This document shows positions 9,085-41,806 of a stretch of 64,000 nucleotides of DNA, piece after piece; positions within the stretch are counted from its first letter, which is position 1; every line of letters starts with the position of its first letter. The translations under genes and the position numbers were made by a program. The stretch lies in NCBI RefSeq assembly GCF_046105845.1, contig NZ_CP151004.1, one strand, 5' to 3'. The notes under the pieces are model-generated. The model searched no databases. It saw only the letters and a list, made by a program, of their open reading frames with translations, and was not told the origin of the DNA. This stretch comes from Escherichia coli. GTDB taxonomy: Bacteria; Pseudomonadota; Gammaproteobacteria; Enterobacterales; Enterobacteriaceae.

Positions 9085-9102
9085 CATTGGATAGGAAACA
9101 GT

Positions 9103-10110: not shown

Positions 10111-10217
10111 TTGAGATGATACCTTTATTTGTGCATTAATTTTACAGTTACAAAGATGTATGCTTACATCATTTGAAATGTCATAATCAAAGCAGTGTCC
10201 CCTGACAGGAGTAAACA

Positions 10218-11624
10218 ATGTCAAAGCAACAGATCGGCGTCGTCGGTATGGCAGTGATGGGGCGCAACCTTGCGCTCAACATCGAAAGCCGTGGTTATAC
10301 CGTCTCTATTTTCAACCGTTCCCGTGAAAAGACGGAAGAAGTGATTGCCGAAAATCCAGGCAAGAAACTGGTTCCTTACTATACGGTGAAAGAGTTTGTT
10401 GAATCTCTGGAAACGCCTCGTCGCATCCTGTTAATGGTGAAAGCAGGTGCAGGCACGGATGCTGCTATTGATTCCCTCAAGCCATACCTCGATAAAGGTG
10501 ACATCATCATTGATGGCGGTAATACCTTCTTCCAGGACACCATTCGTCGTAACCGTGAGCTTTCTGCCGAAGGCTTTAACTTCATTGGTACCGGTGTCTC
10601 CGGTGGTGAAGAAGGCGCGCTGAAAGGTCCTTCCATTATGCCTGGTGGGCAGAAAGGAGCCTATGAACTGGTTGCACCGATCCTGACCAAAATCGCCGCA
10701 GTGGCTGAAGACGGTGAGCCATGCGTTACCTATATTGGTGCCGATGGCGCAGGTCACTATGTGAAGATGGTTCACAACGGTATTGAATACGGCGATATGC
10801 AGCTGATTGCTGAAGCCTATTCTCTGCTTAAAGGTGGTCTGAACCTCACCAACGAAGAACTGGCGCAGACGTTTACCGAGTGGAATAACGGTGAACTGAG
10901 CAGCTACCTGATCGACATCACCAAAGATATCTTCACCAAAAAAGATGAAGACGGTAACTACCTGGTTGATGTGATTCTGGATGAAGCAGCAAATAAAGGT
11001 ACGGGCAAATGGACCAGCCAGAGTGCGCTGGATCTCGGCGAACCTCTGTCGCTGATTACCGAGTCTGTGTTTGCACGTTATATCTCTTCTCTGAAAGATC
11101 AGCGCGTTGCCGCGTCTAAAGTTCTCTCTGGCCCGCAAGCGCAGCCAGCTGGCGACAAGGCTGAGTTCATCGAAAAAGTTCGTCGTGCTCTGTATCTGGG
11201 CAAAATCGTTTCTTACGCCCAAGGCTTCTCTCAGCTGCGTGCTGCGTCTGAAGAGTACAACTGGGATCTGAACTACGGCGAAATCGCAAAGATTTTCCGT
11301 GCTGGCTGCATCATCCGTGCACAGTTCCTGCAGAAAATCACCGATGCGTATGCCGAAAATCCGCAGATCGCTAACCTGTTGCTGGCTCCTTACTTCAAGC
11401 AAATTGCCGATGACTACCAGCAGGCGCTGCGCGATGTCGTCGCTTACGCAGTACAGAACGGTATCCCGGTTCCGACCTTCGCTGCTGCGGTTGCCTATTA
11501 TGATAGCTACCGTGCCGCTGTTCTGCCTGCGAACCTGATCCAGGCACAGCGTGACTATTTCGGTGCGCATACTTATAAGCGCATTGATAAAGACGGTGTG
11601 TTCCATACCGAATGGCTGGATTAA
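10218..11624 (+). CDS. gnd: 6-phosphogluconate dehydrogenase, decarboxylating
   Basis: 468 aa; near-identical to E. coli Gnd as I recall it. Confidence 0.98.
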
Positions 11625-11654
11625 TCTGATTTAAATCAATTAATCAATGCAAGG

Positions 11655-11680
11655 CCCGGAGAAACCCTCCGGGCTTTTTT
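11655..11680 (+). terminator. intrinsic terminator downstream of gnd
   Basis: GC hairpin cccggag...ctccggg followed by T-run. Confidence 0.7.
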
Positions 11681-11872
11681 ATTATACAAAGCGGCAGGTT
11701 AGGGCTTTTTTTTATAATTTATAGTTAAAAACGCGATATAATACAGCGCCGCACAGCAGGATCGCTGCCTTGACAGTTCATCTACATCAGCGTTAAAAAT
11801 CCCGCAGTAGATGAAGTTGTGGTGGTGGATTAATGACCACTCTAAATGTTTAACCGGAAGAAGTCAGAGCTA

Positions 11873-13039
11873 ATGAAAATAACAATTTCAGGAACAGGTT
11901 ATGTTGGTCTTTCAAATGGTATTCTGATTGCGCAAAACCACGAAGTGGTTGCACTGGATATCGTTCAGGCCAAAGTGGACATGCTTAACAAGAAGCAGTC
12001 ACCGATTGTTGATAAGGAGATTGAAGAGTATCTGGCGACTAAAGATCTCAATTTCCGCGCTACGACAGATAAGTATGACGCGTATAAAAATGCCGATTAC
12101 GTTATTATTGCCACACCTACCGATTATGATCCGAAAACAAATTATTTTAATACCTCAAGTGTGGAAGCGGTCATTCGTGATGTGACAGAAATTAATCCCA
12201 ACGCGGTAATGATTATAAAATCAACTATCCCTGTTGGTTTTACAGAGTCCATTAAAGAACGGTTTGGTATTGAAAATGTGATCTTTTCGCCGGAGTTTTT
12301 GCGCGAAGGGAAAGCACTTTATGATAACTTGCATCCATCACGCATTGTGATTGGTGAGCAATCCGATCGCGCTGAACGTTTTGCAGCGTTATTACAGGAA
12401 GGCGCTATTAAGCAAGACATACCAACATTGTTTACTGACTCAACCGAGGCTGAGGCGATTAAACTTTTTGCCAACACTTATCTGGCTATGCGTGTAGCGT
12501 ATTTCAATGAACTTGATAGTTATGCTGAAAGCCTGGGGCTTAATTCACGCCAGATTATTGAGGGCGTATGCCTTGACCCGCGTATCGGTAATCACTACAA
12601 CAACCCGTCATTCGGTTATGGTGGTTATTGTCTGCCGAAAGATACCAAGCAGTTACTAGCAAATTACCAGTCTGTGCCGAATAACCTGATCTCGGCAATT
12701 GTTGACGCCAACCGCACGCGCAAAGATTTTATTGCCGATTCTATCCTTGCACGTAAACCGAAAGTTGTTGGCGTCTATCGTTTGATTATGAAGAGTGGTT
12801 CAGACAATTTCCGTGCTTCCTCGATTCAGGGTATTATGAAGCGAATCAAAGCGAAAGGCGTGCCTGTAATCGTTTATGAGCCAGCTATGAAAGAGGACGA
12901 TTTTTTCCGGTCACGCGTGGTACGTGATCTGGATGCATTCAAACAAGAAGCTGATGTTATTATTTCTAACCGTATGTCTGCCGATCTGGCTGATGTAGCA
13001 GATAAAGTTTATACGCGCGACTTGTTTGGCAATGATTAA
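11873..13039 (+). CDS. ugd: UDP-glucose 6-dehydrogenase
   Basis: 388 aa from ATG at 11873 ([16 protein letters not shown]); ORF-track start at 11846 is an upstream in-frame extension. Confidence 0.96.
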
Positions 13040-13061
13040 TTATTTTGTTTCATTCTAAGAA

Positions 13062-13085
13062 AAGGCCCTAATAAATTAGGGCCTT
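13062..13085. terminator. bidirectional hairpin between convergent ugd and gla-like gene
   Basis: aaggccctaa...ttagggcctt stem flanked by A-run and T-run. Confidence 0.6.
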
Positions 13086-13104
13086 TTCTTATGGTTTTGT
13101 AAAA

Positions 13105-14109
13105 TCAAACTTTATAGAAGTTACGATACCATTCTACAAAGTTCTTTACCCCCTCTTTAACTGACGTTTCAGGTTTGAATCCTATTACGTCATACAGTGC
13201 TTTTGTATCAGCACTGGTTTCCAGTACATCACCGGGTTGGAGAGGCATCATATTTTTGTTGGCTTCAATACCCAGAGCCTCTTCTAAGGCATTGATATAG
13301 TCCATCAACTCCACAGGCGAACTATTACCTATGTTATAGATACGATATGGTGCTGAACTTGTTGCAGGCGAGCCTGTTTCTACAGCCCACTGTGGATCTT
13401 TTTCTGGAATAACATCCTGTAAGCGAATAATAGCTTCGGCAATATCATCAATATAAGTAAAGTCACGCTTCATTTTGCCGAAGTTGTAAACATCAATGCT
13501 TTTACCTTCCAGCATGGCTTTAGTAAATTTAAATAATGCCATATCCGGACGTCCCCATGGACCATAAACCGTAAAGAAACGCAGCCCTGTGGTCGGTAAG
13601 CCATACAAATGAGAATACGTATGGGCCATGAGTTCATTCGCTTTTTTAGTTGCTGCATAAAGCGAAACAGGATGATCTACAGAGTCATCTGTAGAGAAAG
13701 GCATCTTGCGGTTCATGCCATAAACAGAACTGGAGGAAGCGTAAAGTAGATGTTGAACATTATTATGGCGGCATCCTTCCAGTATGTTCAGGAATCCAAT
13801 CAGGTTTGCATCTGCATATGTATTGGGATTTTCAAGGGAGTAACGTACACCTGCTTGCGCAGCGAGGTTTATTACGCGATCGAACCGCTCGTCTGCAAAT
13901 AGTGCCGCCATTTTCTCACGATCGGCCAGGTCAATTTTATAAAAACTGAAATTGTCGTGCTTGAGTAAATCAAGTCGTGCTTGTTTGAGGTTGACATCGT
14001 AATAATCATTTAAGTTATCAATGCCTACAACCTGATGACCAGCTGCAAGAAGCCGTTTACTTACATAGAAACCGATAAAGCCAGCAGCTCCCGTAACCAG
14101 AAATTTCAT
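13105..14109 (-). CDS. gla: UDP-glucuronate 4-epimerase (NAD-dependent epimerase, Gla-like)
   Basis: 334 aa; [21 protein letters not shown] Rossmann N-terminus and overall resemblance to UDP-GlcA 4-epimerases. Confidence 0.75.
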
Positions 14110-14280
14110 TTATAATCCTCACTCAGGCTAGAATATAGCCAATCTTCATCTGGCATAACTGAAAGTTAAATCATACCGTTAGACAAGAAAAAAAGATAAT
14201 CGGTATCAGTTCTAAACCTGGCTGTTTTTTCTGGTAACGTGCTCATTTTGCAATCATAGCTGTTCTAAGCTGACTATTAG

Positions 14281-14388
<108 letters not shown>

Positions 14389-14397
14389 CATCCTGTT

Positions 14398-14420
14398 ATC
14401 AGGGCGATTTTCGCCCTGAT
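14398..14420 (+). terminator. hairpin after the ugd 3' fragment (likely ancestral ugd terminator)
   Basis: atcagggcgattttcgccctgat perfect stem-loop. Confidence 0.5.
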
Positions 14421-14534
14421 TCTCTTATGTTCCCTTTGTAATAATTCATTATTTTTATCATTTATCCTATAGCATTCATGGCGATTATCGCTAAACTATG
14501 GCGACTTAAAATTATTTCGTCCGTTAGGGTAATG

Positions 14535-15512
14535 ATGAGAGTAGAAAATAATAATGTTTCTGGGCAAAACCATGACCCGGAACAGATTGATTTGATTGAT
14601 TTACTGGTGCAGTTGTGGCGTGGCAAGATGACAATTATCATCTCTGTCATTGTTGCTATTGCCCTGGCTATAGGGTATCTGGCCGTTGCCAAAGAAAAGT
14701 GGACTTCCACAGCTATCGTTACTCAACCTGATGTGGGGCAAATCGCTGGTTATACCAACGCGATGAATGTGATTTACGGATCGGCTGTACCGAAAGTCTC
14801 CGACATTCAGGCTTCACTTATCGGACGTTACAGCACTGCATTCTCAGCATTAGCGGAAACGCTGGATAACCAGGAAGAAGCAGAAAAGCTGACCATTGAG
14901 CCTACCGTCAAAAATCAGTCATTACCTTTAGCAGTTTCTTATGTTGGTGAAACACCTGAAGGTGCGCAGAAGCAGCTGGCGAAGTATATCCAGCAAGTTG
15001 ACGACCAGGTAAATGAAGAACTGGAAAAAGACCTGAAAGATAACATCGCGCTGCGTATGAAAAACTTGCAGGACTCTCTGAAAACCCAGGAAGTGGTTGC
15101 GCAGGAGCAGAAAGATCTGCGTATCCGTCAGATTCAGGAAGCGTTGCAGTATGCGAATCAGGCGCAGGTGACAAAGCCACAGGTTCAGCAGACTGAAGAT
15201 GTGACGCAAGATACGTTGTTCCTTTTGGGGAGCGAAGCGCTGGAGTCGATGATTAAGCATGAGGCGACCCGTCCGTTGGTGTTCTCACCAAACTACTATC
15301 AGACACGTCAAAACCTGCTGGATATCGAAAGCTTAAAGGTTGATGATCTTGATATTCATGCTTACCGTTATGTGATGAAACCCACGTTACCTATTCGTCG
15401 CGATAGCCCGAAAAAGGCAATTACCTTGATTCTGGCGGTGCTGTTGGGTGGCATGGTTGGCGCTGGGATTGTGCTGGGGCGTAATGCTCTACGCAATTAC
15501 AACGTGAAATAA
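14535..15512 (+). CDS. wzzB: O-antigen chain-length determinant
   Basis: 325 aa from MRVENNNVSGQNH; matches E. coli WzzB as I recall it; ORF-track start is an in-frame extension. Confidence 0.95.
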   Translation: MRVENNNVSGQNHDPEQIDLIDLLVQLWRGKMTIIISVIVAIALAIGYLAVAKEKWTSTAIVTQPDVGQIAGYTNAMNVIYGSAVPKVSDIQASLIGRYSTAFSALAETLDNQEEAEKLTIEPTVKNQSLPLAVSYVGETPEGAQKQLAKYIQQVDDQVNEELEKDLKDNIALRMKNLQDSLKTQEVVAQEQKDLRIRQIQEALQYANQAQVTKPQVQQTEDVTQDTLFLLGSEALESMIKHEATRPLVFSPNYYQTRQNLLDIESLKVDDLDIHAYRYVMKPTLPIRRDSPKKAITLILAVLLGGMVGAGIVLGRNALRNYNVK

Positions 15513-15534
15513 TCTTTGCAGCTTTAAAGAAAAT

Positions 15535-15567
15535 GGGCAGGGTGGTGACACCTTGCCCGTTTTTTTT
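15535..15567 (+). terminator. intrinsic terminator downstream of wzzB
   Basis: gggcagggtggtgacaccttgccc hairpin followed by nine T. Confidence 0.75.
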
Positions 15568-15568
15568 T

Positions 15569-15596
15569 GCCGGATGCGACAACAATATCGCATCCG
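15569..15596 (-). terminator. hairpin downstream of hisI (his operon 3' end)
   Basis: gccggatgcga...tcgcatccg stem-loop immediately 3' of hisI on the minus strand. Confidence 0.45.
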
Positions 15597-15609
15597 CTTA
15601 CCCCGCAAC

Positions 15610-21743: not shown

Positions 21744-22643
21744 TCACTCCATCATCTTCTCAATCGGCAGGACCAGGATTGAACTGGCACCCAGCGCTTT
21801 CAGTTTTTCCATCGTTTCCCAGAACAGGGTTTCGCTACTGACCATGTGCATCGCTACGCGTTGTTGGTCACCCGCCAGCGGCAGAATGGTTGGGCGTTCG
21901 GCACCTGGCAGCAGGGCGATGACTTCATCCAGACGTTCGGTCGGTGCGTGCATCATGATGTATTTTGATTCGCGCGCCTGGATCACCCCCTGAATACGGG
22001 TCAGCAGTTTGTCGATCAGTTGCTGTTTGGATTCTTCCATTTCGCCATCGCGCTGGATCAGGCAGGCTTTCGAGCGGTAGATAACTTCGACTTCGCGCAG
22101 GCCGTTAGCTTCCAGCGTGGCACCGGTGGAAACCAGATCGCAAATCGCATCCGCCAGTCCGGCACGCGGGGCAACTTCGACAGAACCGTTCAGTAAACAG
22201 GATTTAAAAGAGATGCCTTTCTGGTCGAGATAACGCTTGAGCAGGTGAGGATAAGAGGTGGCGATACGTTTACCGTTTAAGGAGAGCGGGCCATCCCAGG
22301 CTTCATCAACCGGCGTTGCCAGTGAAAGTCGGCAGCCGCCGAAATCCAGACGACGCAGGGTAAAGTAGCGCGGATCTTCACCCTGGGCTCGGCGGTTAAG
22401 CAGCTCTTCTTCCAGCACGTTTTCGCCGATAATCCCGAGGTCAACCACGCCGTCCATTACCAGACCGGGAATGTCGTCATCACGTACGCGCAGAATATCA
22501 ATCGGCATGTTTTCTGCCATCGCGATCAGGCGCTGGGTGTGAAGATTGATTTTAATGCCACAGCGCGCCAGTAATTCGCGTGAGTCATCACTTAAACGGC
22601 CGGATTTCTGCATAGCTATGCGTAAACGAGTGTTGTCTGTCAT
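21744..22643 (-). CDS. hisG: ATP phosphoribosyltransferase
   Basis: 299 aa from [17 protein letters not shown]; ORF track extends 13 codons upstream. Confidence 0.97.
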
Positions 22644-22691
22644 TTTCTTATTCCTCTTTAAACCTGTCTGAACCGTTATCAACCGCGCAAT

Positions 22692-22729
22692 AAAAAAGCC
22701 CCCGGAAGGTGATCTTCCGGGGGCTTTCT
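22692..22729 (-). terminator. his operon attenuator terminator
   Basis: agcccccggaag...cttccgggggct hairpin followed by U-run on the minus strand, between hisL and hisG. Confidence 0.8.
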
Positions 22730-22788
22730 CATGCGTTCATGCACCACTGGAAGATCTGAATGTCTTCCAGCACACATCGCCTGAAAGA

Positions 22789-22839
22789 CTAGTCAGGATG
22801 ATGGTGATGATGGTGGTGTTTAAATTGAACGCGTGTCAT
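22789..22839 (-). CDS. hisL: his operon leader peptide
   Basis: Minus-strand translation MTRVQFKHHHHHHHPD* with seven consecutive His codons. Confidence 0.92.
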   Translation of the reverse strand: MTRVQFKHHHHHHHPD

Positions 22840-23062
22840 AAAAGTCTCTGTGAATGTTTATTCAACTGATGTCTTTTAACCTAAACCACTTTCACGTTAG
22901 AAAGCAAGGGCTTTTTTATATATTTTATGGCGATGGATTTGTTTAATGAATGAGCGGGGCAAGGTGGGTGCCTGGAGTGACTACGTTAGAAAAGAAATCG
23001 TGAAAATATGTCTTTAAAACCCTCAAGAACATTGTGTTCTGTAACTAAAGTGGGCTTTGTTC

Positions 23063-23099
23063 CTGCCGGATGCGGAGTGAATGCCTTATCTGGTCTACA
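23063..23099. repeat. REP-like palindromic element
   Basis: gcctgccggatgcggagtgaatgccttatctggtctaca resembles the REP consensus. Confidence 0.5.
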
Positions 23100-23131
23100 A
23101 ATGTTGCGTAAATTCAATATATTGATGTTTT

Positions 23132-23163
23132 TGTAGGACTGATAAGCGGAGCGCATCAGGCAA
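23132..23163. repeat. REP-like palindromic element (inverted relative to the first)
   Basis: tgtaggactgataagcggagcgcatcaggca; pairs with the preceding REP as a BIME-like unit. Confidence 0.5.
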
Positions 23164-23265
23164 TGGTATATTTGCTAACCGTTTCGATTTCATTCATAGA
23201 ATGAATTGTCAGTTTTGATACGCTAGCGTAGCCTTATAGATCTAAGGTGTATCAGGAGATAACGG

Positions 23266-24090
23266 ATGAAAAAGGTCGCAATTGTCGGGTTAGGGTGGTT
23301 AGGCATGCCGCTGGCAATGTCACTTTCAGCGCGAGGCTGGCAAGTCACCGGGAGTAAAACCACACAAGATGGTGTCGAAGCGGCCCGAATGAGTGGCATT
23401 GATAGCTATCTGCTTCGCATGGAGCCTGAGTTAGTTTGCGATTCTGACGATCTGGATGCCCTGATGGATGCCGATGCGCTGGTCATTACGCTTCCGGCAC
23501 GTCGTAGCGGCCCCGGCGATGAGTTCTATTTACAAGCGGTACAAGAGTTAGTGGATAGCGCGCTGGCCCATCGTATTCCCCGAATTATTTTTACCAGCTC
23601 AACATCTGTCTATGGCGACGCGCAAGGCACGGTTAAAGAAACTACCCCGCGTAATCCGGTAACCAACAGTGGACGAGTATTAGAAGAACTCGAAGACTGG
23701 CTGCACAATTTACCCGGTACTTCGGTCGATATTCTGCGTCTTGCGGGCCTGGTCGGACCGGGACGTCATCCCGGACGCTTCTTTGCCGGAAAAACCGCCC
23801 CTGATGGTGAACATGGTGTTAATTTAGTCCATTTAGAAGATGTTATTGGCGCTATCACTCTGTTGTTACAGGCACCTAAAGGCGGACACATCTATAATAT
23901 ATGTGCGCCAGCTCACCCTGCGCGTAATGTTTTCTATCCGCAGATGGCCCGTTTACTGGGGCTGGAACCTCCGCAGTTCAGAAATAGTCTGGACAGCGGC
24001 AAAGGTAAGATTATTGATGGCAGTCGGATTTGTAATGAACTGGGGTTTGAATACCAGTATCCCGATCCGCTGGTAATGCCGCTGGAGTAA
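23266..24090 (+). CDS. yeeZ: NAD(P)-binding epimerase/dehydratase-family protein
   Basis: 274 aa; VAIVGLGWLG Rossmann N-terminus; synteny with E. coli. Confidence 0.88.
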   Translation: MKKVAIVGLGWLGMPLAMSLSARGWQVTGSKTTQDGVEAARMSGIDSYLLRMEPELVCDSDDLDALMDADALVITLPARRSGPGDEFYLQAVQELVDSALAHRIPRIIFTSSTSVYGDAQGTVKETTPRNPVTNSGRVLEELEDWLHNLPGTSVDILRLAGLVGPGRHPGRFFAGKTAPDGEHGVNLVHLEDVIGAITLLLQAPKGGHIYNICAPAHPARNVFYPQMARLLGLEPPQFRNSLDSGKGKIIDGSRICNELGFEYQYPDPLVMPLE

Positions 24091-24135
24091 ACGATCACGC
24101 CAGCAGGACGCCGCATACACTGCAAGGGGGCGTGT

Positions 24136-25065
24136 ATGAAACCACTGCTGGATGTGTTGATGATCCTCGATGCCTTAGAAAAAGAAGGCAGTTTTGCGGC
24201 GGCGTCGGCCAAACTCTACAAGACGCCGTCCGCTCTGAGTTACACCGTTCACAAGCTGGAAAGCGACCTTAATATTCAATTGCTTGATCGTAGCGGTCAC
24301 CGCGCTAAATTCACCCGCACCGGAAAAATGTTATTAGAGAAAGGGCGGGAAGTTCTGCATACCGTGCGAGAACTGGAAAAGCAGGCTATCAAACTGCATG
24401 AAGGCTGGGAAAACGAGCTGGTGATTGGCGTGGACGACACGTTTCCTTTTTCTCTGCTTGCGCCTCTCATTGAAGCTTTTTATCAACATCATAGCGTGAC
24501 GCGCCTGAAGTTTATCAATGGCGTACTCGGTGGTTCCTGGGATGCCCTGACTCAGGGGCGAGCGGATATTATTGTTGGCGCGATGCATGAGCCACCATCT
24601 TCCAGTGAGTTTGGTTTCTCGCGGTTGGGCGATCTTGAACAAGTCTTTGCGGTCGCGCCTCATCATCCGTTAGCCCTGGAAGAAGAGCCGTTAAATCGTC
24701 GTATTATTAAGCGATATCGGGCGATTGTGGTGGGGGACACTGCACAGGCCGGCGCTTCTACGGCCTCACAACTTCTCGACGAACAAGAAGCTATTACCGT
24801 TTTCGATTTTAAAACCAAGCTGGAGCTGCAAATTAGCGGTCTTGGTTGCGGCTATTTACCCCGTTATCTGGCGCAACGTTTTCTCGATAGTGGCGCGTTA
24901 ATTGAGAAGAAAGTGGTCGCCCAAACCCTCTTTGAACCCGTCTGGATTGGCTGGAACGAACAGACCGCAGGGCTTGCCAGCGGTTGGTGGCGAGATGAAA
25001 TTTTAGCAAATAGTGCGATCGCCGGTGTTTATGCAAAATCTGATGACGGAAAATCAGCCATTTAA
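24136..25065 (+). CDS. yeeY: LysR-family transcriptional regulator
   Basis: 309 aa; N-terminal HTH plus LysR substrate-binding region. Confidence 0.88.
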   Translation: MKPLLDVLMILDALEKEGSFAAASAKLYKTPSALSYTVHKLESDLNIQLLDRSGHRAKFTRTGKMLLEKGREVLHTVRELEKQAIKLHEGWENELVIGVDDTFPFSLLAPLIEAFYQHHSVTRLKFINGVLGGSWDALTQGRADIIVGAMHEPPSSSEFGFSRLGDLEQVFAVAPHHPLALEEEPLNRRIIKRYRAIVVGDTAQAGASTASQLLDEQEAITVFDFKTKLELQISGLGCGYLPRYLAQRFLDSGALIEKKVVAQTLFEPVWIGWNEQTAGLASGWWRDEILANSAIAGVYAKSDDGKSAI

Positions 25066-25331
25066 AGAAAAATTATTATGACAAGCCTCTCATTCTCTTG
25101 TCATTTCCCCCCCATTTAGGCACAATGCGCCGCTGTCAAAAAATGACTAAAAACCGACGTTTAATTAGCGTCGGTTATTTTTTGCTTCAAACCAATCATT
25201 CATACCAAGAGGCCGGGCTTCGTACCGGATAGATATTTACTAAAAATCGACAGTTGTTGTCGCTGAGGAATCCAAAAAAATGGGGCAATTTTTTGCTTAC
25301 GCGACGGTTATCACCGTAAAGGAGAATGACC

Positions 25332-26690
25332 ATGTCGCATAACGTTACTCCAAACACCTCTCGCGTGGAATTGCGTAAAACGCTTACGTTAGTTCCGGTT
25401 GTAATGATGGGTCTTGCCTATATGCAGCCGATGACGCTGTTTGATACTTTTGGTATCGTTTCAGGCCTCACGGATGGTCATGTGCCGACAGCCTATGCGT
25501 TCGCATTGATTGCGATCCTGTTTACGGCTCTGAGCTACGGGAAGCTGGTTCGCCGCTATCCTTCTGCTGGCTCTGCATACACTTACGCCCAGAAATCCAT
25601 TAGCCCGACTGTCGGCTTTATGGTGGGTTGGTCTTCTCTGCTCGACTATCTGTTCGCGCCGATGATCAACATTCTGCTGGCGAAAATCTATTTTGAAGCT
25701 CTGGTGCCTTCCATCCCATCGTGGATGTTTGTGGTGGCGCTGGTGGCCTTTATGACCGCCTTTAACCTGCGTAGTCTGAAATCCGTAGCGAACTTCAACA
25801 CTGTAATCGTCGTGTTGCAGGTAGTGCTGATCGCGGTGATTCTGGGCATGGTTGTTTATGGCGTATTTGAAGGTGAAGGCGCGGGTACGCTGGCGAGCAC
25901 TCGTCCGTTCTGGTCTGGCGATGCGCATGTTATCCCGATGATTACCGGGGCGACAATCCTGTGCTTCTCCTTTACCGGCTTTGACGGCATCAGCAACCTG
26001 TCGGAAGAAACCAAAGATGCAGAGCGCGTGATCCCGCGTGCGATTTTCCTGACCGCGCTGATTGGCGGCATGATCTTCATCTTTGCAACTTACTTCCTGC
26101 AACTGTATTTCCCGGATATCTCTCGCTTTAAAGATCCGGATGCGTCACAGCCTGAAATCATGCTGTACGTGGCAGGTAAAGCATTCCAGGTTGGTGCGCT
26201 GATCTTCTCCACCATTACCGTACTGGCGTCCGGTATGGCGGCGCACGCAGGCGTTGCGCGTCTGATGTACGTAATGGGTCGTGACGGCGTGTTCCCGAAA
26301 AGCTTCTTCGGTTATGTACACCCGAAATGGCGTACTCCGGCGATGAACATCATCCTGGTTGGCGCGATTGCCCTGCTGGCAATCAACTTCGACCTGGTAA
26401 TGGCAACGGCGCTGATTAACTTTGGTGCGCTGGTGGCGTTCACCTTTGTTAACCTGTCGGTCATCTCGCAGTTCTGGATCCGTGAGAAGCGTAACAAGAC
26501 GCTGAAAGATCACTTCCAGTATCTGTTCCTGCCGATGTGTGGTGCGCTGACCGTTGGTGCGCTGTGGGTTAACCTGGAAGAAAGCTCAATGGTTCTGGGT
26601 CTGATCTGGGCTGCTATCGGTCTGATTTACCTGGCTTGCGTAACCAAGAGTTTCCGTAACCCGGTTCCGCAGTACGAAGACGTAGCATAA
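25332..26690 (+). CDS. plaP: putrescine importer (APC-family amino acid/polyamine permease)
   Basis: 452 aa from [16 protein letters not shown]; polytopic membrane protein; matches PlaP/YeeF. Confidence 0.92.
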
Positions 26691-26707
26691 TCATCTTTTC
26701 TAATAAT

Positions 26708-26746
26708 AAACCGGAGTCGAATGAACATTTGGCTCCGGTTTTTTTA
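26708..26746 (+). terminator. intrinsic terminator downstream of plaP
   Basis: aaaccggagtcga...ggctccggttt hairpin followed by T-run. Confidence 0.7.
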
Positions 26747-26868
26747 TTCTTTTTTATCGAAATCCTCATTAATAACCATTTGTTCTAATTTAGAGAATTT
26801 GGTTATTGGTCTGCATTCCACCAGTCATGAATAATTTCCCCATTAACATTCATCTGGTTAATTAATTT

Positions 26869-27927
26869 ATGTTTTCAATGATATTAAGCGGGCTAATTTG
26901 TGGTGCTCTGCTGGGATTTGTCATGCAGCGTGGGCGTTTTTGCCTGACTGGTGGTTTTCGCGATATGTATATCGCGAAAAATAATCGCATGTTTTACGCC
27001 TTGCTGATTGCAATTTCGGTACAAAGCGTGGGGGTTTTTGCGTTAATTCAGGCGGGCCTACTGACTTACGAAGCCGGGGCGTTCCCGTGGCTTGGTACTG
27101 TTATAGGTGGGTATCTTTTCGGGCTGGGAATTGTTCTGGCGGGTGGATGTGCCACCGGGACCTGGTATCGCGCGGGTGAGGGATTGATCGGCAGTTGGAT
27201 CGCGCTTTTCACTTATATGGTGATGAGTGCGGTGATGCGTTCTCCACACGCCAGTGGTTTAAATCAAACCTTGCAGCACTACACTACTGAACATAACTCT
27301 ATTGCTGATACTTTTAATTTGTCTGTGTGGCCGTTGGTTGCCGTTTTGCTGGTGATAACGCTCTGGGTGGTGATGAAAGAGTTGAAGAAGCCAAAACTCA
27401 AAGTCGCGACCTTACCGCCGCGCCGAACCGGGATCGCTCATATTCTGTTTGAAAAACGCTGGCATCCCTTTGTCACAGCTGTACTCATCGGTTTGATTGC
27501 GCTTTTAGCCTGGCCCCTGAGTGAAGCAACCGGACGTATGTTTGGGTTAGGCATCACTTCCCCAACGGCCAATATTCTGCAATTTCTGGTCGCGGGTGAC
27601 GTGAAATACATTAACTGGGGCGTTTTCCTGGTGTTAGGGATCTTCGTGGGGTCATTTATTGCCGCCAAAGCGAGCCGTGAGTTCCGCGTTCGCGCTGCTG
27701 ATGCACAAACAACATTACGTAGCGGGTTAGGTGGTGTACTGATGGGCTTCGGTGCCAGCATTGCAGGTGGTTGCTCTATCGGTAATGGACTGGTCATGAC
27801 TGCAATGATGACCTGGCAGGGCTGGATTGGCCTTGTATTTATGATTCTCGGAGTCTGGACTGCGTCCTGGCTTGTGTATGTTCGACCGCAGCGTAAGGCG
27901 CGACTGGCAACTGCTGCGGCAAATTAA
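26869..27927 (+). CDS. yeeE: YeeE/YedE-family inner membrane transporter (thiosulfate uptake)
   Basis: 352 aa polytopic membrane protein with internally repeated halves. Confidence 0.88.
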   Translation: MFSMILSGLICGALLGFVMQRGRFCLTGGFRDMYIAKNNRMFYALLIAISVQSVGVFALIQAGLLTYEAGAFPWLGTVIGGYLFGLGIVLAGGCATGTWYRAGEGLIGSWIALFTYMVMSAVMRSPHASGLNQTLQHYTTEHNSIADTFNLSVWPLVAVLLVITLWVVMKELKKPKLKVATLPPRRTGIAHILFEKRWHPFVTAVLIGLIALLAWPLSEATGRMFGLGITSPTANILQFLVAGDVKYINWGVFLVLGIFVGSFIAAKASREFRVRAADAQTTLRSGLGGVLMGFGASIAGGCSIGNGLVMTAMMTWQGWIGLVFMILGVWTASWLVYVRPQRKARLATAAAN

Positions 27928-27940
27928 GTAAGGTGTAAAG

Positions 27941-28168
27941 ATGGCGATTAAAAAGCTGGATGTGGTGACGCAGGTCTGTCCGTTTCCACTCATAGAAGCA
28001 AAAGCAGCACTGGCAGAAATGGCCAGCGGCGATGAGTTGGTAATTGAGTTTGATTGCACCCAGGCAACTGAAGCAATCCCACAGTGGGCGGCAGAAGAAG
28101 GGCATGCCATCACCGATTATCAGCAGATTGGCGATGCAGCGTGGAGCATCACCGTTCAAAAAGCCTGA
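27941..28168 (+). CDS. yeeD: TusA-like sulfurtransferase
   Basis: 75 aa; CPFPL active-site cysteine motif. Confidence 0.9.
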   Translation: MAIKKLDVVTQVCPFPLIEAKAALAEMASGDELVIEFDCTQATEAIPQWAAEEGHAITDYQQIGDAAWSITVQKA

Positions 28169-28179
28169 CTCAAAATTGT

Positions 28180-28204
28180 CCTCCGCCGTACCAGCGGCGG
28201 AGGC
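28180..28204. terminator. bidirectional hairpin between convergent yeeD and sbcB
   Basis: tcctccgccg...cggcggagg stem-loop. Confidence 0.55.
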
Positions 28205-28210
28205 TTCACA

Positions 28211-29638
28211 TTAGACAATCTCTTCCGCGTACTGCCAAAGTGCTTTTAACAGCGCCACTTTCTCTTTGTCATCGGCATATTGTTGTGCCAGCATCTGCAA
28301 TTCATCAGCATAGCCCTGCAAAAACTCTGGCGTGAAGACCTGGCGGCGGTGCTCCAGCCAGCGTTGCTGCTCGGCATAATCCAGCGTCCCCGGGAAGTTG
28401 CGTGCCCGATAATTGAACAACAGCTTTTCAATCCGTTTATCAACAAAAGTGATATCCAGTGCCGGTAAATTACGCGGCTCGGTTTCAAGCACAATTTTCA
28501 TTGCTGCACGATCGGCGTCACTGAAAAAACCATTATAAAGCTGTGCATCCACGTTATCTGAAGGCGTAAACGGTTCGGCTTCCGCGAATATCGCCACCAC
28601 TTTTTCACGCACTTGCGGATTTTCACGCAGAATTTTCAGGTTATCGAGGCAATGCTGACGATTAATTCCCAGTCGGTCGGCATCTTCCGGGCGTAGCGTA
28701 TTCGCCTGGGCCAGCACCGGACATTTATTGATATGCACCAGCTTAACCGGAACGGCGGCGTTATCGCCAAGATCGGTTTTTGCGGTATATAAACGCTCGC
28801 GCAATGTGTCGCTATCCAGTTCCAGTAATGGCGAAATGTCTCCTGCCAAATCCACCATAATTACGGCATTGCGATTTTCAGGATGCCACGCCAGCGGTGC
28901 CACCCAGCTGGTGTTGCCGCGCCATGCCCCAAACATTCCGGAAACGTGAACCAGGGGTTTCATCTGCGGAACATCAATCAACGCCATTAGTTTGTGTTTA
29001 TTGCGATGGGTAAAGAGATAATCAAACAGGCGTGGCTGACGCGTTTTTACCAGCTTTGCCATCGCAATAGTGGCGTACACATCAGCCATCGCATCGTGGG
29101 CGTTGCTATGTTCAATACCATTCGCTTTGGTTAAATGCTCAAGGCGAAAGCTCGGTAGACCGTCATCATTTTCAGGCCAGTTTATTCCTTCCGGGCGCAG
29201 GGCATAACAGGCACGCATAACATCCAGTAAATCCCAGCGCGAGTTATCATGCTGCCAGCTCCAGGCGTAAGGATCGTAGAAATTACGATAAAAAACGTTG
29301 CGTGTGACTTCGTCGTCGAAACGCACATTGTTGTAGCCCAGAATACAGGTCTTCGGTACGGTAAAAAGCGAGTGAATACGGGCGGCAAACGCGGCTTCGT
29401 TTTCTCCTTTCGCCCGTGCCTCCTGCGGGGTAATACCGGTAATTAATACTGCTCCAGGCTGGGGTAAATAGTCATCCGCGGGCTTGCAGTAAAAGACTTC
29501 GGGTTTGCCGATGACATTGAATTCGTTATCAGTGCGAATGGCTGCGAACTGTGCAGGGCGATCTAACGCGGGGTGCGTTCCAAAGGTTTCGTAATCGTGA
29601 AACAAAAAGGTAGATTGTTGCTTACCGTCATTCATCAT
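28211..29638 (-). CDS. sbcB: exodeoxyribonuclease I
   Basis: 475 aa from MMNDGKQQSTFLFHDYETFG (DEDDh exonuclease motif); ORF track extends 16 codons upstream. Confidence 0.97.
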   Translation of the reverse strand: MMNDGKQQSTFLFHDYETFGTHPALDRPAQFAAIRTDNEFNVIGKPEVFYCKPADDYLPQPGAVLITGITPQEARAKGENEAAFAARIHSLFTVPKTCILGYNNVRFDDEVTRNVFYRNFYDPYAWSWQHDNSRWDLLDVMRACYALRPEGINWPENDDGLPSFRLEHLTKANGIEHSNAHDAMADVYATIAMAKLVKTRQPRLFDYLFTHRNKHKLMALIDVPQMKPLVHVSGMFGAWRGNTSWVAPLAWHPENRNAVIMVDLAGDISPLLELDSDTLRERLYTAKTDLGDNAAVPVKLVHINKCPVLAQANTLRPEDADRLGINRQHCLDNLKILRENPQVREKVVAIFAEAEPFTPSDNVDAQLYNGFFSDADRAAMKIVLETEPRNLPALDITFVDKRIEKLLFNYRARNFPGTLDYAEQQRWLEHRRQVFTPEFLQGYADELQMLAQQYADDKEKVALLKALWQYAEEIV

Positions 29639-29840
29639 TAGGTTAAATCCGTTGTTTCTGCTGTCTGCCAGAGTATCAAATATCACCGTGCTAATCAGCT
29701 TTAGCGCGACAATTTGGCAGCGAGTGACAACAGATCATGTCAGATAAAAATGAGATAGTAGTCACATTTTCTTGCACTTTATTCCAGCCAGTTCATAAGT
29801 ATTTCCGTAAAAAGAACAGCTATTTGAAACTCCTGAGGGT

Positions 29841-31013
29841 TTGCTGTTGAAACGCCGTCTTATTATTGCTGCTTCTTTGTTCATTTTTAACTTATCGTCT
29901 GGTTTTGCGGCGGAAAACATTCCTTTTTCACCTCAGCCTCCAGAGATTCATGCCGGGTCCTGGGTATTGATGGATTACACCACCGGTCAGATTCTCACCG
30001 CGGGTAATGAGCATCAACAGCGCAATCCCGCCAGCCTGACAAAGCTGATGACGGGCTATGTCGTGGATCGCGCTATCGATAGTCATCGCATTACGCCAGA
30101 CGATATTGTCACCGTGGGGCGCGATGCGTGGGCGAAAGATAATCCGGTATTTGTCGGTTCTTCACTGATGTTTCTGAAAGAGGGCGATCGCGTATCGGTA
30201 CGTGATTTAAGCCGTGGTTTAATTGTGGATTCCGGAAATGACGCTTGTGTTGCTCTGGCTGACTATATTGCCGGTGGGCAACGGCAGTTTGTTGAAATGA
30301 TGAACAACTATGCCGAGAAGCTGCATCTCAACGATACGCATTTTGAAACAGTGCATGGTCTGGATGCACCAGGCCAGCATAGCTCGGCTTATGATTTAGC
30401 TGTGCTTTCTCGCGCTATCATCCACGGCGAGCCCGAGTTTTATCATATGTACAGTGAGAAAAGTCTCACCTGGAACGGTATCACCCAGCAAAACCGTAAC
30501 GGGTTATTGTGGGATAAAACCATGAATGTTGACGGCCTGAAAACGGGTCATACTTCTGGTGCCGGGTTTAATCTCATTGCTTCGGCTGTCGATGGGCAGC
30601 GTCGTCTCATTGCAGTGGTAATGGGGGCTGACAGTGCAAAAGGTCGTGAGGAAGAGGCTAGAAAATTACTGCGTTGGGGGCAACAAAACTTTACTACGGT
30701 GCAAATTTTGCACCGTGGGAAAAAGGTCGGAACGGAACGCATCTGGTATGGCGATAAAGAAAATATCGACCTGGGAACGGAACAAGAGTTCTGGATGGTG
30801 CTACCGAAAGCCGAAATTCCACATATCAAAGCCAAATATACCCTTGATGGTAAAGAACTCACCGCGCCAATTAGCGCCCATCAGCGGGTAGGGGAAATTG
30901 AACTTTACGACCGTGATAAACAGGTGGCGCACTGGCCGCTGGTTACCCTGGAATCTGTCGGGGAAGGCAGCATGTTTTCCCGCCTGAGTGATTATTTCCA
31001 CCATAAGGCCTGA
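29841..31013 (+). CDS. dacD: D-alanyl-D-alanine carboxypeptidase (PBP6b)
   Basis: 390 aa; signal peptide, SxxK (ASLTK) and SGN motifs; TTG start, alternative TTG at 29847. Confidence 0.93.
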   Translation: MLLKRRLIIAASLFIFNLSSGFAAENIPFSPQPPEIHAGSWVLMDYTTGQILTAGNEHQQRNPASLTKLMTGYVVDRAIDSHRITPDDIVTVGRDAWAKDNPVFVGSSLMFLKEGDRVSVRDLSRGLIVDSGNDACVALADYIAGGQRQFVEMMNNYAEKLHLNDTHFETVHGLDAPGQHSSAYDLAVLSRAIIHGEPEFYHMYSEKSLTWNGITQQNRNGLLWDKTMNVDGLKTGHTSGAGFNLIASAVDGQRRLIAVVMGADSAKGREEEARKLLRWGQQNFTTVQILHRGKKVGTERIWYGDKENIDLGTEQEFWMVLPKAEIPHIKAKYTLDGKELTAPISAHQRVGEIELYDRDKQVAHWPLVTLESVGEGSMFSRLSDYFHHKA

Positions 31014-31099
31014 CCTTTCTTTTGCAGCAGACTGGCAGGAGTGCGAGTCTGCTCGCATAATCAACACTCATTCCTTGTGGTTTTAATATTGCAACTATG

Positions 31100-31115
31100 C
31101 TGTATATAAAAACAG
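31100..31115 (+). promoter_or_regulatory. LexA (SOS) box upstream of sbmC
   Basis: ctgtatataaaaacag fits the CTGT-N8-ACAG consensus, 17 nt upstream of the sbmC start. Confidence 0.65.
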
Positions 31116-31131
31116 TGTTAATGGAGGCGTC

Positions 31132-31605
31132 ATGAACTACGAGATTAAGCAGGAAGATAAACGTACCGTTGCAGGTTTCCATCTCGTTGGCCCGTGGGAG
31201 CAGACGGTAAAGAAAGGTTTTGAGCAGTTGATGATGTGGGTAGATAACAAAAATATTGTGCCGAAGGAGTGGGTTGCTGTCTATTACGACAATCCAGATG
31301 AAACACCCGCCGAAAAATTACGCTGCGACACCGTCGTGACGGTACCGAATAACTTTACGCTCCCCGAAAACAGTGAGGGCGTCATTCTGACAGAAATTTC
31401 AGGTGGTCAGTATGCGGTTGCGGTGGCTCGTGTAGTCGGTGATGATTTTGCTAAACCCTGGTATCAGTTCTTTAATAGCCTCTTGCAGGACAGTGCTTAT
31501 GAAATGTTACCAAAGCCCTGCTTCGAGGTTTATTTGAACAATGGCGCGGAAGAGGGGTACTGGGATATCGAAATGTATGTTGCGGTGCAGCCAAAACATC
31601 ACTAA
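31132..31605 (+). CDS. sbmC: DNA gyrase inhibitor
   Basis: 157 aa; matches SbmC/GyrI. Confidence 0.95.
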
Positions 31606-31803
31606 TTCATCTCAGGGCGGTGTGTTAACGCGAAGACCACTCTTTTTTTTGAAAGCGAAAAGAGTAAGATGCGCCTTTCAATTTTTTCGCTCCTGCCGGG
31701 AAATTACACTGTTCCCGGTTTGTCCGTCGGATAATTCAGAGGCGCGCCTTCTGGCCGACAGATGTGTTATGAGCGCTTTTAATCTTCATTACGGAGTTTC
31801 TGC

Positions 31804-32862
31804 GTGCGTGCCGATAAGTCATTAAGCCCGTTTGAAATCCGGGTATACCGCCATTACCGCATTGTGCATGGTACTCGGGTCGCGCTGGCATTCCTGCTCA
31901 CTTTTCTCATTATCCGCCTGTTTACTATCCCGGAAAGCACCTGGCCGCTGGTCACCATGGTGGTGATTATGGGGCCAATCTCGTTCTGGGGTAACGTTGT
32001 CCCTCGTGCCTTCGAACGTATTGGCGGTACGGTGTTGGGGTCGATTTTAGGTCTTATCGCTCTGCAACTGGAGTTAATCTCGTTACCGCTGATGTTAGTC
32101 TGGTGCGCGGCGGCGATGTTTCTTTGCGGTTGGCTGGCGCTGGGCAAGAAACCGTATCAAGGTTTATTGATTGGGGTGACGCTGGCAATTGTTGTTGGTT
32201 CCCCGACAGGTGAAATTGATACGGCGTTATGGCGAAGCGGCGATGTGATCCTCGGCTCTTTACTGGCAATGTTGTTTACCGGTATCTGGCCACAACGAGC
32301 GTTCATCCACTGGCGCATTCAACTGGCAAAAAGTCTGACCGAGTATAATCGGGTCTATCAATCTGCATTCTCACCGAACTTACTCGAACGCCCACGTCTG
32401 GAAAGCCATCTACAAAAACTCCTGACCGATGCCGTGAAAATGCGTGGGCTGATTGCGCCCGCCAGCAAAGAAACCCGTATTCCAAAATCGATATATGAAG
32501 GTATCCAGACCATTAACCGCAATCTGGTTTGTATGCTGGAGTTGCAAATCAATGCGTACTGGGCCACGCGCCCCAGCCATTTCGTGTTATTGAACGCGCA
32601 AAAACTTCGTGATACCCAGCACATGATGCAGCAAATACTGCTGAGCCTTGTTCATGCGTTGTATGAAGGTAATCCGCAGCCGGTTTTTGCCAATACGGAA
32701 AAATTGAACGATGCTGTGGAAGAGCTGCGTCAGTTGCTCAATAACCACCATGACCTGAAGGTTGTGGAAACACCAATCTATGGTTATGTGTGGCTGAACA
32801 TGGAAACGGCACATCAGCTTGAGTTGCTATCGAATCTGATTTGCCGGGCCTTGCGCAAATAA
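31804..32862 (+). CDS. yeeA: FUSC-family inner membrane protein
   Basis: 352 aa; N-terminal TM helices; GTG start inferred. Confidence 0.88.
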   Translation: MRADKSLSPFEIRVYRHYRIVHGTRVALAFLLTFLIIRLFTIPESTWPLVTMVVIMGPISFWGNVVPRAFERIGGTVLGSILGLIALQLELISLPLMLVWCAAAMFLCGWLALGKKPYQGLLIGVTLAIVVGSPTGEIDTALWRSGDVILGSLLAMLFTGIWPQRAFIHWRIQLAKSLTEYNRVYQSAFSPNLLERPRLESHLQKLLTDAVKMRGLIAPASKETRIPKSIYEGIQTINRNLVCMLELQINAYWATRPSHFVLLNAQKLRDTQHMMQQILLSLVHALYEGNPQPVFANTEKLNDAVEELRQLLNNHHDLKVVETPIYGYVWLNMETAHQLELLSNLICRALRK

Positions 32863-33033
32863 TTCCTGAACTTCAGAATCATCTTGCTGCTGCTTCGATT
32901 CAGCAAGGATAAAGGGTATGATAGTGAAAAGGGATAAAAGCATTGTCATCTGCGGCAGCTATGAGTAATGTTGGCCCTAACGAATAGCGGTTGCTTAAAC
33001 GAATCCGACTCTCACATTATCAGGGGTATAAAA

Positions 33034-33363
33034 ATGGAAACTACCAAGCCTTCATTCCAGGACGTACTGGAATTTGTTCGTCTGTTCCGTCGTAAGAACA
33101 AACTGCAACGTGAAATTCAGGACGTTGAGAAAAAGATCCGTGACAACCAGAAGCGCGTCCTGCTGCTGGACAACCTGAGCGATTACATCAAGCCGGGGAT
33201 GAGCGTTGAAGCAATCCAGGGCATCATCGCCAGCATGAAAGGTGACTATGAAGATCGCGTTGACGATTACATCATCAAAAATGCCGAGCTCTCCAAAGAA
33301 CGCCGCGATATCTCCAAAAAGCTGAAAGCTATGGGCGAAATGAAAAACGGCGAAGCGAAGTAA
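33034..33363 (+). CDS. yeeX: DUF496-family protein
   Basis: 109 aa from [14 protein letters not shown]; ORF track includes a 22-codon upstream extension. Confidence 0.9.
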
Positions 33364-33378
33364 TTCCTGTTTTATTCA

Positions 33379-33403
33379 ATGAGGGTTGCCCGGCAACCCT
33401 CAT
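33379..33403. terminator. bidirectional hairpin between convergent yeeX and pduV
   Basis: atgagggttgcccggcaaccctcat perfect palindrome. Confidence 0.6.
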
Positions 33404-33463
33404 TGCTCATTGATTCTTTTCTGTGCATCACCGTCATCATTCTCATCTGAGAACCTGTCGAAA

Positions 33464-33907
33464 TTAGCGACAGCCTTCTTCTGTATGCAGCAAGGCTAAA
33501 AGTTCTGCAACTCCATTGTTATTAACCACACTGGTTACTAACACGTTGTGCGCTCCAGCTTCCCGTAACCAACATTTCACCAAAGATAGTTGTTCCATGT
33601 TGGCTAAATCTGCTTTGGTTACTACTCCAATGACCGGGCGATTCATTGACGAGGTAAAGCCTGGCGAAAAAGGTGACCACGGTGCGTCCGCATTAAGCAC
33701 CAGCGCGATAATGTCCGCTTCGCAGGCACTGACCAACAGTGCACTGTAGAGGCTGCGGTTTTCGAGGTATTCGCCTGGTGTATCAATGGTGGTCGGGGAC
33801 CAGACGATTGCCTGCGTTTTCTGATAATGAATATTTTCGCCACGCAGACATTGCGTGAGTGACGTTTTTCCGCACTGGCTGGGGCCGATGAGCATCATAC
33901 GTTGCAT
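33464..33907 (-). CDS. pduV: propanediol-utilisation microcompartment GTPase (EutP/PduV family)
   Basis: 147 aa; P-loop GPSQCGKTS; last gene of the pdu operon. Confidence 0.9.
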
Positions 33908-33911
33908 AACG

Positions 33912-34262
33912 TCAGGTTCGCGTAATGGGGCAGGCGGTAAAGCGCATCATTTCACCCAGCGTACGGGTAACCTGGCTAAGTGCATATTCGATCGCAGAAA
34001 CATCACCAGTCAGCACTACGGCACCGGTAAAACGATCAAGAAAACCGATCTCTACAGAGCCTGATTTTGTGGCGATATCACATGCGATGATAGATGCTTC
34101 GCTGGGGGTAATTGTAAGAATACCAATAGCGGAAATGGTGTCTGGTAAACCCAATTTCTTAAACAGATCCTTCCCTGGATTGGCGATGACATGTGCCAGC
34201 GTGACCTGCTTACCAGGGACATATTCCTGAATCATCCGTTCAGTTGTGTGCTGAGTTGTCAT
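33912..34262 (-). CDS. pduU: BMC shell protein PduU
   Basis: 116 aa from [20 protein letters not shown]; start overlaps the pduT stop by 1 nt; ORF track is longer by 8 codons. Confidence 0.9.
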
Positions 34263-34816
34263 TATCCCTCCACCATCTGACGCCACATGGCTCCATGTGG
34301 ACGGGCAATCACTGACCGATAGACCAACAAACCTTTTTCCCCCGCACGCTCGCTGGCGACAGAGACCGCGTTATTAACATCTGAAATATCGCCAGCAACC
34401 ACCATGTAGCATTTACCACCAATGCCAAAAGCCATATGTACGCGAACGAGAATGACATTCGCAGCTTTGACAGCACAATCGGCAGCGTCAATGCAGGCGG
34501 CGACACCCCAGGTTTCGACTACGCCGACAGCCCGGTGCTGTTCAACATGGTTAAGTCCGCTGATTGCAGAAAGGAGGCTGGGATGAATATTCGGCAGGAC
34601 AAGACTGTCGACCAGCATTTCACCAGCAAGGGACGCTCCGCTGTTGATGGCCTGTTGCACCGCGCCCACATCGCCACCGAGCATCAGCAGAAATTTTCCG
34701 GGGCATAGCGTTTTGCTGACCAGTAACTCAACGTTGGCGCTTTTCAGCATGGCGTCGCCGGTTTCCATCCCTTTCGCGATACTGCTAAGTTCTAAAATAC
34801 CTACCGCTTTCGACAT
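34262..34816 (-). CDS. pduT: tandem-BMC-domain shell protein PduT
   Basis: 184 aa with two BMC domains. Confidence 0.92.
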
Positions 34817-34818
34817 CG

Positions 34819-37271: not shown

Positions 37272-37281
37272 TTCCGTTTCT

Positions 37282-39671: not shown

Positions 39672-39682
39672 CTTTCAGCTCC

Positions 39683-39958
39683 TTAGCGCGAAAGCGTATC
39701 GACAATGCCGACCACTGCCAGGTCGATGGCTTCGTTAGGGCCGGAAAACACATGTCTGGCGCTGGAACCACTGCTGAGGAGTACCAACTCACCAACGCCT
39801 GCGCCGACGGAATCAACGGCAACTTCGTCGCCAGTTAATGGCGTGAGAGGCAGTTCGCCGTCAGCACTGACCCGGCGAACCAGCAGCAGTTTTTTCCCGA
39901 TCAGAGAAGGTGATTTTTGCGTGGATACTACCGCGCCAGTGACTCGAGCCAGATGCAT
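39683..39958 (-). CDS. pduN: BMC vertex (pentamer) protein PduN
   Basis: 91 aa EutN/CcmL-family. Confidence 0.9.
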
Positions 39959-39961
39959 AGG

Positions 39962-41082: not shown

Positions 41083-41084
41083 TG

Positions 41085-41507: not shown

Positions 41508-41530
41508 GCTGTGCTCCTTAGCAAATGGGG

Positions 41531-41806
41531 TTATGCCGATTTAGGTAAAATAGCCTCAACATCACTGTGTGGGCGCGGGATGACATGGCAGGATTTCACT
41601 TCGCCAACTGCGCTTGCCGCAGCGCTCCCCGCATCCACGGCGGCCTTTACTGCACCAACATCACCGCGGACCATCACCGTAATCAGACCCGAACCAATCT
41701 TTTCATAGCCAACCAGTTGCACGTTGGCGGATTTAACCATGGCATCTGCAGCTTCAATTGCGCCAACTAACCCTTTTGTTTCAACCAGTCCTAGTGCGTT
41801 GTTCAT
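41531..41806 (-). CDS. pduJ: BMC shell protein PduJ
   Basis: 91 aa canonical BMC hexamer protein, close paralogue of PduA. Confidence 0.93.

Follow-up and report, generated by a model that had tools for sequence, protein, structure and literature searches.

The hisL-yeeZ spacer of an Escherichia coli strain holds a single BIME-1 element where K-12 has yefM-yoeB

Organization of the hisL-yeeZ spacer

The stretch of E. coli DNA analysed here (the window, 64 kb) contains an intact hisL with an intact hisG downstream of it and, on the other side of a 425 nt spacer (22841–23265, 38.6% G+C), an intact yeeZ followed by yeeY and then plaP (Table 1). On the K-12 map this region is drawn as the reverse complement of the window. 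An earlier note on this DNA had reported no open reading frame (ORF) of 60 aa or more in an interval of about 425 nt; its coordinates are right, and the longest start-to-stop ORF in the spacer has 56 aa and the longest stop-to-stop frame 62 aa, both crossing the pair of REP sequences described below. Four short ORFs of the spacer give no meaningful match in a Pfam scan. In an Rfam scan of 22300–23600 (E ≤ 1) the His leader alone lies above the gathering threshold, and there is no match in the segment that is specific to this form of the spacer (22978–23186). A consensus scan of the spacer for promoters and terminators finds no terminator and two weak promoter-like matches, which lie in the linker between the REPs and occur at chance frequency.

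The same promoter scan does not pick up the hexamers at 22878–22907. These were assigned by comparison with what we take to be the his promoter and are candidates for its −35 and −10 elements; the block that contains them is kept from Escherichia to Klebsiella and Kluyvera in the alignment. At the other end of the spacer, the palindrome in the conserved yeeZ upstream region is identical across the E. coli alleles aligned, and less perfect yet recognizable in other genera. Lying directly upstream of yeeZ, it may serve as an operator; the LysR-type protein YeeY, whose gene lies downstream, is one candidate to bind it.

Table 1. Features at and around the hisL-yeeZ spacer (window coordinates).
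Feature	Position	Strand	Basis or remark
his operon leader/attenuator RNA	22690–22813	−	Rfam RF00514 His_leader, 131.6 bits (gathering score 49), full model length
hisL leader peptide gene, MTRVQFKHHHHHHHPD	22790–22840	−	Direct sequence reading; annotated hisL in aligned genomes
Candidate his promoter, −35 TTGCTT (22902–22907) and −10 TAGGTT (22878–22883)	22878–22907	−	By eye
Left arm of the Escherichia-specific insert, common to REP and yefM-yoeB alleles	22918–22977		In K-12 and REP-allele genomes
Allele-specific segment of the toxin-antitoxin-free allele, ~209 nt	22978–23186		Alignment with K-12
Inverted REP (putative y type), ends in CTAC	23064–23098	+	Decayed; 4 mismatches to the presumed y consensus
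Long (L-type) BIME-1 linker, 34 nt, core AAATTCAATATATTG, candidate IHF site	23099–23132		Matches yiiF-fdhE paralogue
REP (putative z1 type), starts with GTAG	23133–23162	+	Own hairpin −5.4 kcal/mol, z = −2.2
Palindrome TTCATTC-ATA-GAATGAA	23189–23205		Within conserved yeeZ upstream region (23187–23265), at the right junction of both alleles
yeeZ, SDR-family oxidoreductase/putative epimerase, intact, 274 aa	23266–24090	+	99.0% nt identity to K-12 yeeZ; annotated yeeZ in aligned genomes

The two inverted REP-like palindromes that the earlier note had seen in the interval are indeed there, and both belong to a single composite element, BIME-1 (23064–23162). BIME-1 is defined as one y and one z1 REP in a single pair with a long conserved linker that often contains an IHF site (PMC3333891). 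The spacer element matches this definition in having two REPs in inverse orientation (CTAC/GTAG), putatively one y and one z1, one pair only, and a 34-nt linker with AAATTCAATATATTG; it differs from BIME-1 elements in general in that its y REP is decayed and in that it is placed between divergent promoters and not at the 3′ end of a transcription unit. The arms of the REP pair are complementary and jointly form one long hairpin of −16.9 kcal/mol (z = −3.5), as stable as which none of 200 shuffles was found. The hairpin of the y iREP alone is at background level (−2.7 kcal/mol, z = 0), G-to-T and C-to-T changes weakening its stem; the y copies in Escherichia sp. MOD1-EC7003 and at yiiF-fdhE are better kept.

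The typing of the two REPs as y and z1 is based on consensuses that we presume to be GCCGGATGCGGCGTGAACGCCTTATCCGGCCTAC for y and GTAGGCCTGATAAGCG.AGCGCATCAGGCA for z1. At up to three mismatches the presumed y consensus has no match in the window and, since the local y copy is four mismatches away from it, membership of the family is shown through BLAST copy number and paralogue alignment. The 111-nt element is found in at least 19 places, usually at least 40, in 5425 of 5426 E. coli genomes (word-11 BLAST), and its full-length paralogues among E. coli genomes are 80–85% identical. The best paralogue lies in the convergent yiiF-fdhE spacer and aligns through REP, linker and REP, with 84% identity over 107 nt; the linker is conserved in this paralogue as well as across Escherichia species. 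At both sites the element is extragenic, and the hisL-yeeZ spacer contains a single REP pair. The non-repeat part of the insert (22921–23062, including about 85 nt of unique sequence to the left of the BIME) is without paralogues at other sites of E. coli genomes. The annotation of NC_000913.3 lists no REP or RIP features in the stretches examined.

Within the linker, 23112–23127 matches the IHF consensus with one mismatch on both strands. Such matches number 96 across the window against 85 ± 9 expected by chance, and this one was rejected as independent evidence because it is at background frequency. REPs lie mostly in transcribed 3′ regions; the BIME of the spacer is found between two divergent promoters, an atypical REP position. 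Binding of IHF and gyrase and the buffering of supercoiling are known for BIMEs in general (PMC3333891), and by analogy the element between the his and yeeZ promoters could bind IHF or gyrase, or serve as a supercoiling buffer.

Two alleles of the spacer in E. coli

In K-12 the genes are arranged in the order hisL, yefM, yoeB, yeeZ, just as the earlier note had stated. YefM is an antitoxin of about 83 aa (Phd/YefM family); the toxin YoeB (about 84 aa, YoeB/Txe family, RelE fold) is encoded directly downstream, by a gene that overlaps the antitoxin gene. Neither gene has a counterpart in the spacer or a copy anywhere in the 64-kb window. With queries taken from the annotated K-12 record, tblastn (word size 2) against the whole window gives best E-values of 0.30 for YefM and 0.24 for YoeB, both outside the spacer, and no matches in 22841–23265; blastn with the K-12 cassette DNA (word size 7) gives chance matches alone, all of them outside the spacer. 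TGTACA palindromes are an operator feature upstream of yefM, where the K-12 sequence reads TTGTACAATGAACTGTACA, and the TGTACA core is likewise not found in 22841–23265. The YoeB mRNA interferase and its antitoxin YefM are missing at the canonical locus of this strain.

Alignment of the spacers of the window, K-12 RV308, strain GF4-3 and O157:H7 EDL933 agrees with the earlier note on the absence of the module relative to K-12, but the difference is a replacement and not a clean deletion. The flanks are identical or near-identical between the two forms, on the left up to about 22977 and on the right from about 23187, and between sharp junctions some 209 nt in the window replace some 651 nt in K-12, which comprise the yefM promoter, yefM and yoeB. 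The spacer is accordingly 425 nt long in the form with the REPs (REP allele) and 867 nt in the form with the module (toxin-antitoxin allele). The left junction of K-12 falls inside a perfect 11-1-11 palindrome, GCTAAGAGGAC-T-GTCCTCTTAGC (about 1831–1853 of the K-12 RV308 locus), of which REP-allele strains such as EDL933 have the left half alone. On the right, both alleles join the flank next to the palindrome at 23189–23205.

Both alleles are common. The survey covered 5426 complete RefSeq E. coli genomes, 5423 of them with the locus. A 216-nt allele-specific query finds the REP allele in 1198 genomes (22%), nearly always in one place per genome; these include O157:H7 strains, EDL933 among them, and AS19, which we take to be a derivative of E. 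coli B. The K-12 toxin-antitoxin segment is present in 4218 genomes (78%), with no copy on the plasmids of that collection. An 831-nt query that spans the spacer is fully covered in 1193 of the 5426 genomes and is split around annotated yefM and yoeB in the others; a query of 22921–23062 is matched by toxin-antitoxin-allele genomes over just its first 51 nt. The presence or absence of yefM-yoeB is thus a strain polymorphism, as the earlier note had put it, and takes the form of two alleles. Since their counts add up to 5416 of the 5423 genomes with the locus (4218 with the cassette against 4225, or 5423 − 1198, expected), the alleles are essentially mutually exclusive, and it follows that REP-allele genomes are generally without a K-12-type cassette elsewhere. 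Each allele has an internal diversity within E. coli of 95–99% identity, which indicates that both are old. With high confidence, we regard the spacer of the window as the toxin-antitoxin-free allele of an intergenic Escherichia locus that exists in two forms.

The locus in other species and the direction of change

A scan based on YeeZ, with one genome per species, yields 80 loci. In 79 of these hisG lies upstream of yeeZ, the exception being a 4-kb contig too short to hold hisG. The hisL-yeeZ interval is 162–188 nt in the 12 non-Escherichia genomes measured, which represent 10 other genera (Salmonella, Citrobacter, Lelliottia, Raoultella, Enterobacter, Klebsiella, Kluyvera, Pluralibacter and Franconibacter among them). 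The alignment shows both the his promoter block and the block upstream of yeeZ in these genera, but not about 265 nt between them, roughly 22918–23187, so that both E. coli alleles lie inside an insert specific to Escherichia. The left arm of this insert is missing from Salmonella, Citrobacter, Enterobacter, Klebsiella and Kluyvera; its first ~55–60 nt and its right end are common to both alleles. Within the genus, E. coli E69, E. albertii and two cryptic species, Escherichia sp. E1V33 and Escherichia sp. MOD1-EC7003, have an interval of 424–426 nt with the BIME, and E. whittamii has an interval of 866 nt and YefM and YoeB proteins 100% identical to those of K-12; these five are the Escherichia species representatives seen, E. 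fergusonii, E. marmotae and E. ruysiae not being among them, and the region is heavily recombining.

Three observations suggest that, within the genus, the REP allele came first. Identity between E. albertii and the window is 87% in the segment and 92–95% in the flanking genes, a difference compatible with non-coding DNA inherited vertically. The toxin-antitoxin segment of E. whittamii is 96.7% identical to that of K-12, above the values for its own yeeZ (93.2%) and hisG (95.4%). Finally, the K-12 cassette (1919–2486 of the RV308 locus, including about 65 nt upstream of yefM) has 82–86% identical copies on plasmids of 130–170 kb in Salmonella enterica, Citrobacter sp. and Escherichia marmotae, and more distant yefM-yoeB copies are found on plasmids of Pantoea, Yersinia and Enterobacter. 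On these sequence comparisons we lean, with some reserve, towards an order in which the REP allele was there first and the plasmid-related yefM-yoeB cassette replaced it later.

The opposite direction, with yefM-yoeB ancestral in Escherichia and lost here, and with the REP segment either brought in by recombination from another lineage or built up after a deletion, is a possibility we hold to be doubtful but of some weight. The toxin-antitoxin allele is the majority form, at 78%, and its diversity within E. coli equals that of the REP allele; the common left arm and right junction also fit a replacement in the direction of loss; and for ccdO157, a chromosomal toxin-antitoxin module, decay and loss are on record in work cited in a passage of Fraikin et al. 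(2020, PMC7167474). Against this stand the distribution of the REP allele, which every Escherichia species representative but E. whittamii carries (four of five), even the divergent E. albertii, and whose divergence fits vertical descent, and the E. whittamii segment, which is nearer to K-12 than are the genes that flank it. The plasmid relatives of the cassette and the lack of any remnant of the module in the REP allele also speak against an ancestral yefM-yoeB.

The locus as a whole can be read as follows. Escherichia has an extra non-coding insert between the divergent his promoter and yeeZ. In about one-fifth of E. coli, and in the window, this is the insert of about 265 nt that ends with a single BIME-1 (putative y iREP, long linker, candidate IHF site, putative z1 REP); in the remaining four-fifths the ~651-nt segment with yefM-yoeB stands in place of its right ~209 nt. 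The near-identical flanks mean that either allele could be swapped in by homologous recombination, which the heavy recombination around the neighbouring his/O-antigen region would aid. The 78-nt yeeZ upstream region and the his promoter block are the same as in genera without the module and, as both are unchanged, the simplest reading is that YoeB/YefM function alone would be missing, with yeeZ expressed from its own upstream region. In K-12, yeeZ is listed as ‘likely cotranscribed’ with yefM-yoeB and as having in addition a putative promoter of its own (review table, PMC5120126).

A more specific process than generic homologous recombination might be at work if hisL-yeeZ were a recurrent integration hotspot, toxin-antitoxin cassettes entering and leaving at hairpin/REP sites by a single-strand or REP-transposase-like mechanism. 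The shared ~55–60-nt left arm, the palindrome at the right junction and that at the K-12 left junction would suggest such a process, as would the folA-apaH site, where REP sequences are found at the position that holds ccdO157 in other strains (Mine et al., 2009, as cited in a passage of Fraikin et al., 2020, PMC7167474). As far as that passage describes it, folA-apaH resembles hisL-yeeZ in being an intergenic site with a toxin-antitoxin module in some E. coli and REPs in others, and differs from it in being another locus with another toxin-antitoxin family (ccdO157). We consider a hotspot of this kind improbable.

That the spacer is a heavily decayed, pseudogenised yefM-yoeB remnant into which a BIME was inserted is highly improbable. 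A spacer that looks intermediate does exist in E. coli HH97, with pieces of the yefM promoter and coding sequence and the right half of the BIME, but its pattern is that expected of a consensus made from mixed reads (see below). Similarity between the segments specific to the REP allele and to the toxin-antitoxin allele does not exceed that of 300 dinucleotide shuffles: the local alignment score is 12.5 against 11.3 ± 1.5 for the shuffles, 66 of which score at least as high as the real pair, and the global score is 14.6 against 14.7 ± 3.0. The earlier note had named intact or degraded yefM or yoeB coding sequence in the interval as the finding that would count against it; tblastn, blastn and the shuffle-controlled alignments are all at chance level, and the reading as a degraded remnant was rejected. 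A private deletion or an assembly artefact of one strain, for which the bare absence of the genes is the sole argument, is practically ruled out: the same 209-nt segment with the same junctions recurs in 1198 complete genomes, all independent, and in three further species of Escherichia.

Published relatives, the rest of the window and odd alleles

The toxin-antitoxin-free allele, which the earlier note had read correctly, is ordinary and already published. O157 Sakai is without yefM/yoeB between yeeZ and hisL and has REPs in this spacer, and the published list of spacers with REP sequences and with indels that contain REPs includes yeeZ-hisL (Iguchi et al., 2011, PMC3158064). The spacers of O157:H7 Sakai and EDL933 represent the same allele as that of the window, with no yefM/yoeB, with REPs and with junctions at the same positions; over the allele-specific segment EDL933 and the window share 95.8% identity, their spacers are equal in length to within 1–2 bases, and point differences alone separate them. 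The window strain itself does not belong to O157, its O-antigen cluster being a rare relative of the O48 family. The K-12 module occupies the same chromosomal site, between the same flanks, in 78% of E. coli, and relative to it the window is without the antitoxin ORF, the toxin ORF and the TGTACA operator. No type II toxin-antitoxin module is common to all four of MG1655, W, EDL933 and UTI89 (Fraikin et al., 2020, PMC7167474).

What is added here, namely the frequencies of 22% against 78%, the placement of the junctions and the outgroup state, is detail rather than novelty. For annotation, the missing YoeB of the canonical locus is relevant to comparisons of toxin-antitoxin repertoires and to the transfer of K-12 deletion phenotypes. 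The locus is one more case in which a toxin-antitoxin module and REPs are alternative occupants of a site, here beside the recombination-prone his/O-antigen region.

Elsewhere in the window, the O-antigen cluster with gnd, ugd and wzz (500–15600) is matched in full in just two of the 5426 complete genomes (97.9%), the next relatives being O48-family clusters at about 90%; an ORF of 334 aa lies on the opposite strand between ugd and wzz (13105–14109). Over an 11.9-kb core from yeeY to beyond yeeA (24100–36000) no complete E. coli genome of the 5426 is more than 98.7% identical, so that the lineage of the strain is not closely represented in the collection; the strain may belong to Shigella or to an under-sampled lineage. 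Beyond yeeA (34000–48000) the gene content is unlike that of K-12: the CP4-44 prophage is absent and, before cobUST, there is a block with a ‘4Fe-4S dicluster domain-containing protein’ (BLAST annotation) and other genes.

Two further E. coli genomes have odd hisL-yeeZ alleles. In HH97 (NZ_CP116409.1, locus 1325–1973) the spacer is 649 nt long and contains no annotated genes. Runs of 7–25 nt from both alleles are interleaved in it, and it is about as long as the average of the two alleles (425 and 867 nt); the fine-scale interleaving, down to 7-mers, and the near-mean length led us to reject it as a true intermediate allele, and mixed reads merged into one assembly consensus are its probable source. 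In MEI4BO-21 (NZ_CM149565.1, locus 1568–3649) the spacer is ‘empty’, with 178 nt, and the locus is without yeeY. Its hisG-hisL-yeeZ stretch is 94.9% identical to that of Kluyvera georgiana, and on this identity the hisG-yeeZ segment, a neighbour of the O-antigen region, appears to have been imported from another genus.
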